Assembly (NCBI GenBank): GCA_951804945.1
Contig: OX638149.1
Span: 33,046,001 to 33,110,000, forward strand
Direction of reading: 5' to 3'
Length of the DNA: 64,000 nt
Source: Podarcis cretensis
Taxonomy: Eukaryota
Shown piece by piece: positions 49,401-63,711 of the stretch. Within the stretch, counting starts at the first letter, position 1, and each line of letters opens with the position of its first letter. The translations under genes were made by a program, and so were the position numbers. The notes below the pieces were generated by a model. The model did no database searches and was not told the origin of the DNA. It saw nothing but the letters and a program-made list of their open reading frames with translations.

Positions 49401-51953
49401 CCCTTTGGAACACACGCACACCCCGGCAAAATGGAGGGTTGTTCGGATTCTGCCAGAGCTGCTGTTCCAAAACCAGCAATCACAGCTTTGCACAGGTGGG
49501 TGGGGGAAAATAAATGAATGGAGAATGGGTTTCCTCCACTTTCCAGTTAGATATTTATTTCCCCCGCCGACCAAAGTTGCAATTGCATAAGTAAAATAAG
49601 CGTAAGATGCAAGTTACTTCCTACCCCCCATTATTTTCATCAGCCGGTATAAATAGGTTACATACAGATGTCCATCACTCTGAATGTGGTACCAAGTCAT
49701 GACTCGCATGTGAGAAATGGTTATCGTGGAACAAGCATCACGGATAGAGCTTTCATATAATCAAATATCACTTCCGCCATTTGGCTTCAAATCAAGTGTC
49801 AAGCTGAATGACGTACAAGCATATACAGCATTAATCAGTCCTGATTTTCCCTTTGGAGTATCATTTGAATGAGATACGCAAAGTGCTGATGCAGTGAGTA
49901 GATACAAGCACTATTGAACCCACCACGCTGTGCTCTCTAGGACTTCTAGCAATTGGTAGCTACCCTACACATATGCTAATTACAAAATGTGGGGAAGAGA
50001 ATCAAAACAAGTTAGCATGCACAGTTCCAAAAGGGCAAAATGAATTTTCTTTTATATTTGTTTAAAACAAAAAGGAAGACAACAGAACTTTAAAAAGCAA
50101 GTGCAATTCTGCTGCTGGAACTTTAGACTTATTTTTAAATGGTGTGTTCTTTCTTTCCTTCACTACCACCCCACCCACCCCTGCTACAGCCGGTGTGTTT
50201 CTAATGCAGCACCGCTTGCATTAAAGGTGTAAAGCTTTGTTGCTTCTTTGTCTATTGCAGAATACAGCAGCTGTTTGAAGAAATATTGGGTAACAGCAGG
50301 CAACTGAAATGGCTGTCATGCGGGTTTATGCTACAAATCGTAACACCCACATCATTGTCATCTCTCTCAAATCCTATTGCCAACACTATGGAACACCTGA
50401 GTTTACTGGACAACCACATCCCTGGTAATACCACTCTTATCACTGCGGTTGAATTGGAGCGTTTTGTCAGTCTTCGCTCACTCGCCTTGGATTTCTGTGA
50501 TTTTACAGCAGAAATGGCAAGAGTCCTGGCTGATAGTAACCATGTGCCTTTGCATCGACTGTCTCTTCTGGTCCACAATATTTCCGTAATGCACAAGTCC
50601 CTGGAAAATATGCCAGAAGACGAAGATTGGAAGGCACTGACACGCAACAGCACTAATCTTCGGGTCTATATAATGGCTTTTGATATCAAGAGCGATGACA
50701 TGCTAAGGATTCTTAAACCCAGTATCCCACTGGAGAGGATTCACTTCGACAGCTACATCACTTGCGTTTCAGGAGCTGTTGTTGATCTCATATCTAGGCA
50801 GTATGATAAGTTCCTCACTCATTTCATACTAATGAATGATGTGATAGATATGTCTGGCTTCCCAGATCTCAGCGACAACCGAACCGAAGACCCATTGGTT
50901 TTATTGGCCTGGAGGTGCACAAGGCTCTCTCTTCTGGCAGTGCATGGTAGGCAATTACAGAGGGGCAAAACACTGCTAGTTTAGAAACCTACACATTCAT
51001 ATGGGTATGGGTATGCCCTTGAGATTTCCCACTCAAGTATTTTTCTCCAGGTTTTGAGAGAATTCCCAAAGTGTTGGGTGTTGGGGCAGGGAATAAATTG
51101 TGCTCTGGCTTCAGGCTAGGATATGCTGTGCATATCAACATGATTATATGGTGGGAAACTGTTACTACCTTCAGAACACAAGACTCACAGTTGCCAAAAA
51201 ACAACAACCCAACAACCCTTAATTGATAGGAAAATAACTTCCTGCACTGTTGGATTGTCCTTACTTTAGACGGCTTCCCTGTCAAAGTTGTATTACACCC
51301 GACATATTTTACGATTATTGGCTCCTTTAACACGAGCCTTTATGCTACATACATATCATGCTGCAAAACTACCAAGAAATCCCATGAGACATTTCCTTAC
51401 TCATCTGCCCGGAATTATTGGGGAAGGAAAAACAGGCAGCTCCGCAAAAATTAAATACAAAAAGAAGAAGCAGCAATATTCACTTTTTTAATTAACCGAG
51501 TAAGTAAACTGACCAATTACTGGGGTGATTTCTTGAAAAGAACCTCATTAGGAAAATTGCTAAATAGGGAGACGTTAGCTGTGAGGCTGTAAAATATTAA
51601 ATTACCTTTGGGGTAGGGTGGGGAGGGAGAGGGAAGAAAGACAAAGTCCTAAAAATTAGTAATTGCTTTTTTGTGTTTCAGGTTATACTGTTTGGGCTCA
51701 CAACCTGATTGCCATTGCTCGTCTTCGTGGCTCTGATTTGAAAGTGCTTGAAGTCACAGAAGAAAGCATTGATTTTGACCAAGGTGAATTGGCCGATCAA
51801 GATGTGGATCCGGTGCACAATCTCATTGAGCAGGTATCCCTTGGATTGGGCCGACCTTGGCACGCAGTCATGGACATAGAATTACTCAGTGTCTTTACTG
51901 AGCCAACTCGTCATTTTTACAGAGAAATGCAAAGCTTCAGTGAAGGCATTTAG
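37431..51953 (+). CDS. FBXO33: F-box only protein 33, ~540 aa
   Basis: Exons 37431-37984, 48639-48749, 50261-50946, 51682-51953 (TAG); 1623 nt, GT-AG, phases consistent. Starts MLLFLS; F-box SLPSELVVHIFSFL..PDRLRASAACSHWRECLF; ends HFYREMQSFSEGI. Confidence 0.97.
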
Positions 51954-56890: not shown

Positions 56891-59800
56891 TCAAGTTTCT
56901 TGTTGTGATTCTTGAGGAGTTGCAGAAGATGCAGTTGACGGATGTGTTAACTCAGCAGGCGTTTCATTTCTGCTCTCAGGTGGCAGTGGTGGAAAAAACC
57001 CAGCCCTTGGAGGCGGGTATTGAGAATAAGGCCTCACAGGAAATGGACCTCTCACTGTTCAAAGAGAATGATCAAAGCCCATTTGGGTTAGTATTCAGAA
57101 TGGAGCTACTTTCTTACAGATTTGACACTGAATACTCACAAACACACACACATTAAAATCAACGCTAGCTGTAACTCATACGCAAGAATAAAGGAAGACA
57201 TTAGAAAGCTTCTCAACAATACAAGTTCATGATGCCTATAAACATGGAAGATGTTTGCCTCCCATGGTGAAGGCAAATGTTAATAGTTAATACTTCAATA
57301 ATGCCCATTGAGGTATCCAGGAGCCTCCATGTGCAAGTGGGACAGAAATTTTCCTTGTACAACAGGATTTTCCTCACCTCTGCAGGCCCCACATGTGCCC
57401 AACACTTGCTTTGGAGCATTGAGGGAACTCAGGGAAGGGAGCTGCAGGAGGAGAAATAGAGGGGGAAGTCCTGTTGTGTAAGGGAAATGCTGCTCATGTG
57501 ATGTGGGGTTCAACGACTAACTATCTGTTGCCATGGCCAACTTCATAAGGGAAGCTATGGCATCTAGACTGCCTAACTCACGGGCCCCTTTGCTGTGGAA
57601 GATTCTGCTAGCACTGGTCTCTTCATCTGACAAGAGAAGTAGAGTAGCACTTGGAGCAGAGAATTTCCAAACTTATTTATTCTACAAAATGTATATCCTG
57701 CCCTTCTAAACACATCCGCATCATTCAGAGTGGTTTACAATTAACCGGGAATGAAAACCGGCTCGGATGCTAGGAGCATTCTAAAATAAAAGTCTACCTT
57801 ATAGAAATAATTTGTCCAGCAGCAACCGTATAATAAAACTGGTTGTTGTTTCACCGCAATGTTTTAATCAATCATCACAAAGCAGTTAGAGGGCCCAAAC
57901 GGGCCTCACCAGGTAGGGTATTTTAAAACCTGGGTGCAGCCGCTGAGAAAGGCTTGTTAGGTTTTCTAACAATAGCTTACGAGGTAAAGTTTAATCATAT
58001 CTTCCACTGAAAGTAGTTATTAATTCCCTTAACGCAGCTTTGAACTTGGGAAAATGTCCTTTAAAAGTTATTGAGCACCACCAGCAAGTTAGCAAGACCC
58101 GTTCAGGCATTCACTTCCAACATAAAGAAGAGCTTCCCGGACCTGACGCCTTCCAGGTATTTAGAGAGGACCAGAGTTGCACATGCTAGCCTCTTCTCCC
58201 ACTACTAGCTGCAGAACTTTACACACTGAGTGGGAAGGTCTGGAGGGGGAATCTTTATGTACCCAGCTGATTGCAGGAGATTCCCGTCCACATGGAGGAG
58301 TCTATGTGAAGAGTCCTACTTCCTACCTTCCCACTCCATGAAGCTGATGGGAACAGAGACACTGGGAGCAGGTTTGCTCTCTCGACTAACTTAAGCCCAT
58401 TAATTTCAGTGGAACTTGGGTGCAATTCACTTTGTCCTGGGTTGTGCCTCAAGTTATTGCGGTTTCCAAACGTTTCTCCATGAAATGCATTTCATTATTT
58501 ATTTTAGGGGGGAAATAATGTAAGAGCAGCAAGAACATACTTGGCAGAAGAGGACGTGGCAAACCAGCAAAATCCCTTGGGAAATATTCTCGAGGTCCAT
58601 ATCCGCTAGGAGGCACTGGTGGAAAGGGAGGGCCTCTTCTCATGAAAGGCCCCCTTGGGTCCATTGGCATTAGAGGAGCTCGCAGTAAGGGCAGTGGTGG
58701 CGGCACAATTCCAGGCCCAAAGCCTCCATTGTCAGGTGCATGAGACTGATCCGAGGCATTGAGCGTATTCTGTGAGGAAAGGGAAGTGGGCAAGTAAAGA
58801 TTTAGAAAGAAGCTCGTGCCACTTTTTCAAGCCACAGAGAAACTTGTCAAAGCACGTAAGCTTGAAAAGAAGCTATGATTTACAAGCTACAAAGAAGGCA
58901 GATCAAAGCAGAAGCCCAATCCAAATCAGGAATGTGGGCCAACAGGACAAGGATGGAGCCAAACTCAAAGGCTACAAGTAGGAAATTCATTAAAGCAAGA
59001 CACAACATCACCCCTGCGCTGAAAAGCTAGTCCATTTCCAACTACCTTTCTTTTTGGTCCTTTCATCTTTCTTGCTCTTGCAGGTTGTAAATAAATTAAG
59101 TTGTGAAACTATTATTTTAGCTAACATGTCTTCAGTAATTGAAAATGCCCACAAGGTAATAAATAATGCTGCAGCAAAATACATACTGTGTAAAATCAAT
59201 TTAAAGAACTGTCAAATTCAGCAGAAACTTGACAAACCTTTTTCGCACCTGTCAGAGCTGCCCGAGGTCCCAGCTCACAAAGGACCAATGCCAGTTCTTG
59301 TTATATACAAAAGTCTTTATTTAAGTTCAGTTTCGATTTCAAAGCCGCGGCGCGCAGCTCTACGTCTTAAACTCTAGACCGCTGAAGCTCCGTCTGAATC
59401 TCCTCCCCCCAGACACCAGTTTAAAACTCTAGCCTTGCTCCACCTCTTCCTTTGCTCTTTCCTCCTCTGGGTCCGCCTGTCCACTGGGGTCTTGCCCTTT
59501 CTAGACTCTTCTGACGCTGAGTCCCCTGAGTCTTCCCCCTGCCTCCGGCGGGCTTTAGGACCTGGTTCCCAATCCGGGCTTCCTGCTGTCCCGCGCGCCT
59601 GTACATTTGAACTTGGCACGCGCGCCCAGCCGGCAACCTTCCTCCTGACCGTTACACTGCTCCTGTCACTGCTTCCCCCTTCGGGGGGGCTAGTTGGATC
59701 TGACTTCCCCTCCGTTCCCTCACTCTGCGATGGAGGCGTGGTCAGCCCTGACTCATCTTCTCTCCCTACTGGAGGAGACGCTGGCCCTGATGCATGGGAC

Positions 59801-62800
59801 TCTTCCCCCCCGCTACGCTCTGGTGGGGAAACTGGTCCTGATTTCCAGCTGCTGCTTTGGGAGTCCCCGCTGGCCCCTTGCTTCTGGTGCGTCCCCCCTG
59901 TGACCCCCCTTGCCCTGGCCATCGGCGCCCCCTTCTGGGAATCTCCTGAATCGCTGGAGAAGCTCATGGAATCTCTCGGGCCACTGTCATACTCCCCTAC
60001 GCTGCCCTCAGATTCTTCCCCTTCGCTCTCCGTTTCCTCTCTCCCCTGTGTCTCTGCTCCTGAGCCCCTGACAGCACCAAATGGGATTCAGTAAGAAATT
60101 GATCTTCTCAGTCTTTTGTCTGTTACTTACACTGTCATTGGGATGATCTCTTATTCCATTCCCACTTAAGTCTGTTCCTGAGTTATTCTCAGATGTTTGT
60201 CCATCTGGAAGTGGGGGGAAAATACCCAACAAGTACTTTAGCATTAAGTAGTCCCAAGACAGCTTTCCTCCAAAGAACAGATGGGCGTGGAAACGTATGT
60301 TTTTGCACATTTACTAAACAGAGGTGTTGACTGTATTGATACTTTTGTGCACTTCAAAAAACAAAACAAATAGTGCCATTCCCGCTCACAACCAGTTTGA
60401 ACTATTGTTGTTCCTACTGAAGTAAAATAAATGACAAGGCTGCTGTATAGATTTACTAGATGATCATTTCAGGGAAGAAAATTTATCTTTTTAAAACAAC
60501 CAGTGTGTAAACACCAAAGGCATTGTTTAAACGCTATGCTGGTTGTAGAGAACAAGGTCTGTTTCAAAGTCTAAATCAATGTTTTACTGATCTTGGGTCA
60601 AATGTCTTAGATGAAAGGCTTTTTGCTTTCAGCATGAATTCAGGTTATTCCTTCCCACAGATGCTGAATGGAGATAAAATAATGATGTGACTTATGGTAA
60701 GCAAAGCATAGCAGTCCAGTTAACATAGAGAAAGTGCAGAAGTTTCTTAAACTTTATTGCTGCCTTTTTTTTATCACAAACATGGTATTACAAACAGCAA
60801 AGAACATTAATTTCAAAATACCAAAGTCATTACTGGCATTCTTTGATACGCTACAAACAAGGGAAGAGAAAGTGCTCTGAGTGTTTGGATTTCAAGCTCT
60901 TTGGGCTTTAGTTCTGAGCAGAAAAGGATTATTTACTGCTGCAGCCAAATTTGGTAATGAACTCCTTTATTTGGGCACTAAAAGCAAGCAGTTCCTACCT
61001 GCTTTATCAAATGATGGCATGCTATAACTTCTTAGTTCTGCTGGTCCTGAAAGTCTTCCTGAGTTTGGATGGCTGGGATAAAATCTTTCTGGTCTTCGAG
61101 GAAGAGATTGCTCATTATACAGCTGACCTACCATTCAATAAAAAAGTGCAATTTATTCAGTAGATTTTATTAGAATTAATCAATGATGGCTTAGCAACAA
61201 CTTATATCTTATATTCCTTGTGTTATGGAATATACAAACTAAAGGACATGGGGTGATTGCTACCTAAACCTAGTAGCTGATGGAAATCTCACATCTATCC
61301 CATTTATCAAGGTCGATCAACTATGCAATATGGTCTTGGAATCTTTAAGCACTTATCGGACTCAAATATATCATACATATGCTACTATCCCTTAGGTACA
61401 CCATCAAACACTTGAACCTAAAAAGCCCTGGCAATGATCCCCCCAGAGGTCACAGCACAGTTCAAAACAAAAGGGAGCTCAGCAGTATTTCATTTTGTAA
61501 TTGCCATTAAAAAAGAAAATGTCCAAGAATGATGGGCTGTGTTTAGTTACCTGTGGGCGGGGGCATTATCCTGTGATCTCTATCCCATGGAGGTGACAAA
61601 GATCCAGTGTCAGAAGGTGGTCTGTGGGGATCAGATAACCTGTCAGAATGCAACTCTCCTCTTTCATTACTAACTTCATACATGCCAGCATTCCCCGGTC
61701 CTCTTGATCCTAATTGAACAAGTTACAATGGATTCAGTCACTTGAGACATCCGTCATTGCAGTTTTCACCGAGTACCAAACCACAAGATCCCAACACATT
61801 GAAAGGTGGTAGAATAACACACATGGCTCCCTTGGTGAATGTCAGTCTTGTGCAACTGTTCAGTCAGTCAAAAGTACAGTAAATACTAAGACAGCTGCTT
61901 TGAAAGAGGGTGGAAGGAACCCTGAAACAAAGTCTACATTATATTCTGATTCCTCTCACTGGGCAAAGGGAGGAAAAAGAACGTTAAAAGTCTTTTCATC
62001 AACCTCATCAGTGTTGGCAACATCTTGGCAGAGATTCCTCCTCCCTCAGAGCCCAATTCTGCTTCCCCTTCCCCAAGCAATTTGATCAAACCCATCAAAT
62101 GCAATATTCTCCCCTCCCTTAAATCTCTAATATTTAAAGTAAGAAGACAGCTGAAAAAGATTAGAGAATTTTTTCCCCATTTAGAAGAATAAATGAGAAA
62201 ACACGCTTTAAACCAGTAGGGCATTATTTTGAACTACTGTACATTAAAGCATTTTCATTTCTAATTATTCAAGCTGTTGAGAAGCTTTTAAGGTTTGACT
62301 CACTCTCTGGCTGATTTATGTTGGTCTATCACCTATTTTGTTATACTTGTACTGGCTCGGAATTTATCTGAGTATAGTTGCACTTTCAAGTCAGCAAATT
62401 GACATATTTCCTCCATCCTTTCCAACAAAAGCCAGAACAAAAAGAAACAGCTCCTGAGATTATTCACCACATGCTGCCAATACATATCAGTTAAAAACAA
62501 AACTCTTTTGTTTTTTTCTGTTGAGATCAACAGCCTAAAATACAAATAGACTCAAATATTCTTGCTACAATGATATAAAAGGCCTACTCTTTCAAACTCC
62601 CTTTCTTGAATCTGAAAGATGGCACTGGCTTCACTTTTAGTAGCTAGATGGATGAGCAGTGTTGGTTAAAAAAATTAAGAGTAAAGTAGGTTTTTTAAAA
62701 AAGCTTTTATTCTGTTTTTGTTTTGCGTTGGGCACCCATCTACTGTAATGAGATGCAGAAACTAGGGGAAATAGACCGTTCCACAAATGGATGGACAGCA

Positions 62801-63711
62801 CTAGTGGAAGCATAGATAGTTTCATGATATTCACAAAAAGCACTAGTAGGTGCTGTTAAGAATCCTTCCATGAGCAGAATACATCTTTCACATGTAAAAG
62901 AGCATTTTTAGATCCAACACACTGGTTTTTGGAACATAGAGTCATAATGGTACTGCATACTTCTGCTTCCTGACCGATATGCTAGAGTGCATTTATATGG
63001 ATAATTTAAGCTTACTCTTAACCGGGTTCTTTTTAGTATACTTTTACAGATAGATCCATTACCAAGAAAGGAGGGATAGACTAAGAGGAGAGAGAATCCA
63101 TGAAAGTTAAGTTTTCAAATTTAAGAATTGTACCTCTTCCTCCTCCACCACCTGGAAGCACAGGTGAAAATCTTAAGGGGCCCTCCAATAAGGTTGGAGG
63201 GGAAAGAAAAGCTCTTGTTTCAGATGAAGGTCTGCCCATTGGTGAGGGTCCATATGGGGAGTGCTCTGGAACAGTTAAAACAAAATACTAAAATTCACAG
63301 GTTAGAGTTAATGGGCTGACATATAGTTCATTTCTCACCTAGGTTTAAAACTAATTTGGGACCAAAGAAAAGTCAACCTCTTGACTTCATTATCAGTCAT
63401 GGAATTTTTTTTTAAAAAGTCATTTTAAATAATTTTCAAATGCTCTACAGATTGTTAATAGGAACAAAAATTACAATGGGAATCAAAATACTATATGCTG
63501 TTGCTGCTACAGGTCAATGAAATAAAAATGATCCCTGCATGAATAAAGACCAGCTATGCTTTTATACATAAATGGAGTCATGATCTCTTTACACTTCAAC
63601 AAGATGCACATTTTAAAAAGTACTGTACCTCTGCCAAATGCCCTAACTGGCATATCAAGAGCATAAGGATCCTTTTCCAAACGATCAAATTTAAATTCTG
63701 CTTCTGTTAAT
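56891..63711 (-). CDS. MIA2: MIA2 / cTAGE5 (TALI), last seven coding exons (C-terminal proline-rich domain); 5' part outside the window
   Basis: Exons (minus): 63711-63629, 63265-63134, 61709-61551, 61127-60999, 60204-60131, 58769-58541, 57054-56891 (TGA). Peptides [72 protein letters not shown] and the terminal QQET match the cTAGE5/MIA2 C-terminus; convergent with FBXO33, as in human. Confidence 0.95.
59250..60073 (-). mobile_element. Solo LTR (824 bp) of an LTR retroelement, probably Ty3/Gypsy, with 5-bp TSD
   Basis: Termini TGTCAG...CTGACA; GCACC direct repeat at 59245-59249 and 60074-60078; minus-strand TATA-like TTTTAAA at ~59420-59426 and AATAAA at 59321-59316; GC/CpG-rich against an AT-rich intron. 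Confidence 0.92.

Follow-up and report, generated by a model that had tools for sequence, protein, structure and literature searches.

A U3 reading frame in a lizard solo LTR that very probably encodes the C-terminal tail of a Ty3/Gypsy Pol polyprotein, and a sister family found in telomeric repeats

Long terminal repeats (LTRs) are normally treated as non-coding. Coding inside the U3 part of the LTR is represented by human immunodeficiency virus nef, mouse mammary tumour virus sag, and foamy virus bet, which are separate frames in Retroviridae, and the retroviral proteins Rev and Rex carry an arginine-rich block. Here we analyze a solo LTR of a Ty3/Gypsy chromovirus from the lizard Podarcis cretensis, located in a stretch of 64,000 nucleotides (the window; GenBank assembly GCA_951804945.1, contig OX638149.1, positions 33,046,001 to 33,110,000 of the forward strand), whose U3 is occupied by one long open frame. 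All coordinates refer to the window.

Among the closest described systems are elements of the Tf1/sushi group of Ty3/Gypsy, present in fungi and vertebrates, in which self-priming is known (PMC6317226), and plant CRM group A elements, whose polyprotein extends into the 3' LTR (PMC3059260). In Ty5 and Ty1, short motifs at the C-terminus of integrase tether integration; Ty5 is directed to silent chromatin near telomeres in a phospho-regulated manner, and in Ty1 the targeting motif is nested in a basic nuclear-import signal (PMC4700185, PMC7459421). Accumulation in or at telomeric repeats has been described for the non-LTR elements SART1, Drosophila HeT-A/TART/TAHRE, and FoTeR, of which SART1 targets the repeat array (PMC4700185).

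The U3 frame found in the window very probably corresponds to the final 232-codon portion of Pol, which in full-length elements would be translated from the 3' LTR. The features concerned are as follows.

59250..60073, minus strand: solo LTR, 824 bp, TG..CA ends, Ty3/Gypsy chromovirus "family A"
59374..60072, minus strand: U3 frame, 232 codons and the stop TAG (59376-59374), very probably the Pol/integrase C-terminal tail in full-length elements
59938..60072, minus strand: first 45 codons of the frame, acidic with a net charge of -10 (between -10 and -12 across families A-D), leading into a conserved SS.S.DSQKG.P block
59428..59478, minus strand: basic block, a candidate nuclear-import or nucleic-acid/nucleosome-binding motif judging from its sequence

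The family labels are our own: A is the family of the window, B and C are ~83-84% identical to A, D is 64% identical, and E is a deeper sister lineage with a different, shorter tail. Family-A LTRs are high-copy (2972 candidates at first look across the genome). The preliminary description of this DNA had reported the same frame, open on the minus strand from 60072 to the TAG at 59374 over 232 codons and ~85% of the LTR (197 amino acids counted from the ATG at 59967), with a host stop a few codons upstream; re-reading bore this out, the stop lying five codons upstream of the LTR. It had also proposed that the frame begins in the internal region of the full element, and in full-length elements the frame does run through the polypurine tract in continuity with pol, the order being protease to integrase, degenerate chromodomain, acidic linker, polypurine tract, and all of U3. 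Among the best family-D matches, 89/101 lie in frames of at least 1550 codons, the other 12 being shorter and some of them situated at contig ends, and the polypurine tract is identical in the family-D 3' LTRs listed. One family-C element has a 1563-codon pol ending inside the LTR, one family-A copy is unbroken from chromodomain to tail (776 codons), and the Podarcis muralis proteins P0006, P0007, and P0009 in UniRef read from reverse transcriptase (RT) and/or integrase (IN) through the polypurine tract into the tail. The family-E pol, as seen in the three elements examined, comprises 1333 codons, enters a 410-bp LTR for ~98 codons, and stops just past the self-priming site with a basic-LLxW terminus. 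A point against continuity is that 12/31 older, mostly family-A 3' junctions are in phase with pol, which is the level expected by chance; the breaks in the others are mostly scattered length changes in G runs, and the phase count in such old copies is not decisive.

In the linker (L079-L108), a stretch some 75 codons short of the 3' LTR, ..GG.DMDVLGE.., resembles the polypurine-tract/LTR junction ..GGMDVRGS.. and is possibly a trace of an older LTR boundary. Tandem elements with one common middle LTR, preceded by a polypurine tract and followed by a primer site, occur in families B, C, and D (L123, L141, L167).

Judged by its gene set and priming, the element is a Ty3/Gypsy chromovirus (gag, protease-RT-RNase H-IN, degenerate chromodomain, primer site of the self-priming type) and not a retrovirus, which replaces the complex-retrovirus setting assumed in the preliminary description. 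Full copies contain, in Pfam order, Retrotrans_gag, Ty3_capsid, RVP_2, RVT_1, RT_RNaseH, Integrase_H2C2, rve, and SH3_Tf2-1, and no env-sized frame was found between pol and LTR in full elements. The gag/pol overlap carries the heptamer G_GGA_AAC, which is among the shiftiest -1 heptamers (PMC5009743), and we infer that Pol is made through a -1 frameshift at this site. The sequence after the 5' LTR is a 9-11-nt complement of one LTR site, and the primer site and the LTR site change in step across families A-D and in 3/3 family-E elements, a covariation that fits self-priming of the Tf1/sushi type. The corresponding sites in the window are the following.

59385..59395, minus strand: 11-nt self-priming sequence at the putative 5' end of R, with transcription starting near 59395; it pairs with the primer-binding site of the full element and shows compensatory changes across families
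59420..59426, minus strand: TATA-like TTTTAAA, 31 nt 5' of the putative start, on V-L-N codons, function presumed; family E has the same spacing, under the LLxW motif

The self-priming complement thus places the transcription start near 59395 (LTR base ~679); the frame would therefore span all of U3 and end seven codons into R, and a solo LTR would be unable to express it by means of its own promoter. The TATA-like box underlies the Leu-Asn-Trp codons that immediately follow the basic block, and part of the conservation of these codons may lie at the DNA level.

Regarding placement, the LTR end motifs of Sushi (PMC3601003) are matched fully at the 5' end and in 6/7 positions at the 3' end. In a quick RT-IN tree of 31 rows, which contained no named Tf1/sushi reference, the element groups with Podarcis chromoviruses and one rattlesnake chromovirus, among chromodomain-bearing elements. 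Within the tail-bearing clade, the cage aromatics of the chromodomain are replaced and its Pfam call is lost, PF00385 being retained in 23/24 other relatives; the degenerate domain aligns with the chromodomains of relatives and weakly with HP1 (E 0.16). Of the 22 outgroup relatives (P0016-P0037), 21 have their C-terminus in the chromodomain or no more than 37 residues beyond it, and the remaining one at 87; the tail-bearing clade extends ~360 residues past it, mostly in LTR-encoded sequence.

The tail consists of ~60% S/G/E/R/P and 11% hydrophobic residues and is therefore likely disordered; AlphaFold models of the chromodomain-to-tail region from nine rows (mean pLDDT 39) left even the chromodomain unfolded and are uninformative on fold. 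Its conserved features comprise the acidic start, a single SPP unit, the motifs RKV, EPG.KARR, and SAS.ESRK, and the basic block, whose basic character and RWS are kept in 9/9 aligned rows. The peptide organization given in the preliminary description is present in the copy of the window, and the acidic start and the basic block hold across families; of the four S/T-P-P units, all families share the first alone, since family D is devoid of units 2-4 and a 63-bp deletion takes out the fourth in family C. Neither the sense nor the antisense frame matched any Pfam family (0 families), the ESM Atlas gave no usable match to the tail, and a tail profile search of 1.84 billion representatives returned four clusters, three already known and none recognizable as plant.

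The substitution patterns among copies within one genome, from which all dN/dS (omega) values given here derive, show that the tail is coding and under protein-level purifying selection. Between families, the omega of the tail is 0.20-0.40 with one decayed copy excluded (5' LTR copy L031, which has an internally shifted segment and an omega of 0.27-0.96). In the A versus B comparison, the value of 0.37 lies under all 2000 neutral re-placements (median 0.78, minimum 0.38), the neutral expectation of the method here being 0.78 and not 1, and it is unaffected by excluding the LTR ends and the promoter. The C versus D tail has an omega of 0.31 (dS 1.27), compared with 0.05 for RT (dS 1.39), 0.09 for integrase, and 0.29 for the linker. 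Private variants in 79 family-A LTRs have a pN/pS of 0.73 and include seven stops, whereas variants present in at least four copies have a pN/pS of 0.32 and no stops (Fisher p=0.001); 30 family-B LTRs point in the same direction without significance (p=0.09). The readable indels between families are +6, -3, and -63 inside the frame and ±1 after the stop, those between A and D at the DNA level being too diverged to read. The frame reaches its normal end in 44/80 A, 23/30 B, 28/34 C, and 48/49 D distinct full-length LTRs, shares that come from best-scoring matches and are biased upward, and the motif filter also missed a few open copies. In shuffles preserving mono-, di-, or trinucleotide composition, a sense frame of at least 232 codons arose 6, 28, and 12 times per 5000, and one of that length in any of the six frames 134, 63, and 40 times. 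The preliminary description is thereby confirmed in part, namely for an element-borne coding frame under selection, preserved through indels and rarely equaled in shuffles of the same composition. Many individual family-A copies are interrupted, and the frame is kept in the divergent family D, interruption in divergent subfamilies being one of the signs to the contrary that the preliminary description had named. A further result counting against coding is the third-position degeneracy test, in which sense is not favored over antisense. The other strand carries a shadow frame.

59378..60094, plus strand: antisense shadow frame, 238 codons, not conserved, equal in length to the sense frame and sharing third codon positions with it

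Other frames in the A versus B comparison have an omega of 0.9-1.3, except for this shadow (0.48). It was considered as a real gene and rejected, because it has stops in families B and D and its omega, ~0.5, exceeds that of the sense frame in 3/3 pairs.

The families differ strongly in where they insert. Family D has 774 LTR starts, of which 386 lie behind a polypurine tract, leaving ~388 insertions, and ~240 of these 388 5'/solo LTR starts (~62%) abut telomeric repeats, (TTAGGG)n. In one orientation, 137 starts follow a telomeric repeat (the search pattern also fits a family-A variant, and every telomeric copy checked was D); in the other there are 104, and of the 100 listed 99 are D and one is C. 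The duplication in the telomeric copies listed is GTTAG or its complement. Family-D insertions are also present in interstitial telomeric arrays on C2, C3, and C9, two C-type LTRs lie in interstitial telomeric arrays, and contigs of public run X9, possibly the assembly's own source, show an LTR end followed by telomeric repeat. Two site models were used, one derived from 216 half-sites of A/B/C and the other from 39 half-sites of D outside telomeric repeats; in them GTTAG is the only favorable register, with per-base odds for telomeric DNA of only 1.4 and 0.6, respectively; local preference therefore accounts for the register and not for the enrichment. Half of the placed family-D matches (37/74) lie within 100 kb of a chromosome end, with 27 more on small unplaced contigs, and the counts within 600 kb of an end are 30/150 for A, 7/21 for C, 4/40 for B, and 1/150 for E. 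The telomeric D copies occur in both orientations, on most chromosomes and in interstitial arrays; their LTRs comprise 19 different sequences in a set of 31, and the leader exists in several variants, a pattern that fits repeated independent insertion.

Several observations were made alongside in these regions. In one 49.5-kb terminal stretch, pure repeat amounts to just 1374 bases. On C8 (L200-L204, 5000-54500), pure telomeric spacers between neighboring D elements measure 180, 198, 198, 210, 228, and 264 bp, close to nucleosome size, and one measures 96 bp. At the C1 and C13 ends (L266-L268), elements of families B and C are found just inside degenerate telomeric repeats or interspersed with them, adjoining the family-D zone, which suggests layered accumulation. 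A ~490-bp satellite repeat occurs next to LTR clusters, a few hundred kb in from chromosome ends (L035:3500-9900; L232). For one family-D region (L198:5900-7330), 84-94% of sampled words occur in runs labelled with five organisms, although run X13 covers only 5/30 bins of it. One run, presumed to be RNA, contained pieces of relatives.

Given the degenerate chromodomain of the clade and the precedents in plant CRM, Ty5, and Ty1, we regard the tail as probably a disordered integrase extension involved in nuclear import and chromatin tethering; that the tail itself has an import or tethering role is favored by a narrower measure. Pol, made by the -1 frameshift, would be translated on through the polypurine tract into the 3' LTR, and the tail would remain attached to integrase. 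The basic block would then import or anchor the integrase complex, the faster-evolving linker and tail would select the chromatin partner, and the extension would bias insertion toward chromosome ends. That the tail is what sends family D to telomeres is possible but doubtful, and equally tentative is the fuller proposal that U3, turned into an integrase tail and replacing a dead chromodomain, docks on shelterin-bound TTAGGG arrays in the youngest family. Several results weigh against such targeting. Families C and D also differ in the linker, the integrase core, and the chromodomain, and the effect can therefore not be assigned to the tail by itself; a search for a TRFH-type docking motif found none that separates D from C; ~38% of family-D insertions lie outside telomeric repeats; and no family-A start abuts a telomeric repeat in one orientation (0) or among the 100 listed in the other. 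Family E, with its short tail, is found within 1.5 Mb of ends in 18/150 cases versus 5.7 expected, so the excess that A and C show near the ends may in part be generic.

This last excess also speaks for the best-surviving alternative, which we consider unlikely, that the Pol tail is mostly passive, a charged disordered extension or a plain nuclear-import signal, and that family D is enriched at telomeres owing to another part of the element, real telomeres much longer than those assembled, or recombinational spreading and retention of copies at the ends. Consistent with it, the tail evolves at an omega several-fold above that of RT and IN, its middle tolerates 21-codon losses, and a tail is present in all five families, of which only D is massively telomeric. 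Spreading by recombination is, however, at odds with the two orientations of the telomeric D copies, their varied spacers (180-264 bp on C8), and the diversity of LTR and leader sequences across most chromosomes and interstitial arrays described above. Quite improbable is a separate accessory protein, produced through splicing, through an internal RNA start, or through cleavage of Pol by protease, and serving RNA export or host control, close to the nef/sag/bet- or Rev/Rex-like gene of the preliminary description. An in-frame ATG in purine context 5 nt before the 3' LTR in families A-D, a donor-like GTAAG after the 5' LTR, and the conserved arginine-rich block, to which the likeness to Rev is confined, would suit such a protein; yet in every young family the frame continues pol without a break, as the C-terminal end of Pol/integrase, family E has the same layout with GTG for the ATG and no GTAAG, the GTAAG stretch is explained by self-priming covariation, and no retroviral gene set accompanies it. 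It is most improbable that the frame merely results from the LTR being young, rich in purines, and poor in stops, or that the antisense frame is the real gene: the LTR is T-poor, as many as 2.7% of shuffles yield a frame this long when all six are counted, antisense is open in A and C, and many family-A copies are broken, but the sense frame persists at 64% nucleotide identity with saturated synonymous sites and is open in just 49/2000 neutral simulations at the A-B distance, and the antisense frame is stopped in B and D.

Returning to the Pol tail in the window, the copy found there is an inert remnant in a host intron, and its U3 frame is an orphan. The remaining features of this insertion are listed below.

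60074..60078, minus strand: target-site duplication (TSD) GGTGC, 5 bp, on the 5' side of the LTR
59245..59249, minus strand: TSD GGTGC, 5 bp, on the 3' side of the LTR
59316..59321, minus strand: AATAAA polyadenylation signal in the LTR
60131..60204, minus strand: putative host exon, recognized by its splice-site pattern and separated from the downstream LTR by 57 nt

The LTR termini are the inverted TGTCAG/CTGACA, and the LTR lies in the intron following this exon, 57 nt in and in sense orientation. The host gene (58449-63710, minus strand), near whose 3' end the LTR lies, resembles what we take to be MIA2/cTAGE5, and an exon on the opposite strand (50205-50984, plus strand) is presumably FBXO33-like. 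A sense-oriented intronic LTR with its own polyadenylation signal could possibly cause premature polyadenylation of the host gene. A read-through fusion with the host was considered and rejected, because the frame of the upstream exon enters the LTR in a different frame and stops at 60008. Elsewhere in the genome, LTRs of different families stand head-to-tail or inverted with only a 5-bp spacer (L026:1501-3153, L030, L010), as if inserted at the target duplication of an earlier element, and several solo LTRs share one site (CATAC or CATAT) of a small dispersed repeat (L011, L018, L023, L051, L117), hence a common local target preference.

The main interest thus lies in the architecture of the family and in its telomeric sister family, rather than in the copy in the window. 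Thousands of LTR copies carry a selected protein domain overlapping a promoter, which explains spurious 'hypothetical proteins' in lizard annotations (P0004, P0005), and in family D the telomeric arrays of a vertebrate are filled by an element that uses integrase, which bears on telomere structure and on the assembly of lizard chromosome ends. With IN and RT 83-89% identical, tails 49% identical, and different targets, two recently amplified families make it directly testable what directs Gypsy integration in vertebrates. If the tail does dock on TTAGGG arrays, the ends of lizard chromosomes would be a mosaic in which telomerase repeats alternate with Gypsy elements, built family after family, and the element would parallel plant centromeric retrotransposons as a convergent animal system directed at telomeres. 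In the literature covered, which lies outside repeat databases, subscription journals, and supplements, neither an integrase tail encoded by a vertebrate LTR nor a vertebrate LTR element inserted in TTAGGG arrays was found described.

Each ingredient has a precedent elsewhere. Retroviral U3 accessory genes and Rev/Rex share with it coding in U3 and an arginine-rich block, whereas the lizard frame is continuous with pol and belongs to Gypsy. With the Tf1/sushi group (PMC6317226), the lizard element shares the order of Gag and PR-RT-RH-IN, an apparent remnant of a chromodomain-type fold at the integrase end, the self-priming primer site, a 5-bp TSD, and a gag-pol overlap with a shifty heptamer; in contrast to that group, the lizard clade adds ~360 residues and has lost the cage aromatics. 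Compared with Ty5 and Ty1, which are Copia elements, the tail is LTR-encoded while their motifs are not, and Ty5 is drawn to silent subtelomeric chromatin and not to the repeat array itself. The telomere-specific non-LTR elements (PMC4700185) use target-primed reverse transcription and are telomere-restricted, whereas family D is an integrase-using LTR element inserted in both orientations, with ~38% of its insertions elsewhere. To plant CRM group A (PMC3059260), the extension of the polyprotein into the 3' LTR forms an apparent animal parallel, although host and clade are different and no sequence likeness of the tail to it was found by the Pfam search (no family) or the profile search (four clusters, none recognizably plant), the tail not having been compared directly with an alignment of the CR motif. 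In those elements the CR motif replaces the chromodomain, whereas the lizard element keeps a degenerate chromodomain upstream and its LTR part covers all of U3; and where CRM elements are associated with the centromere, family D is enriched in the telomeric repeat, in TTAGGG arrays at both chromosome ends.

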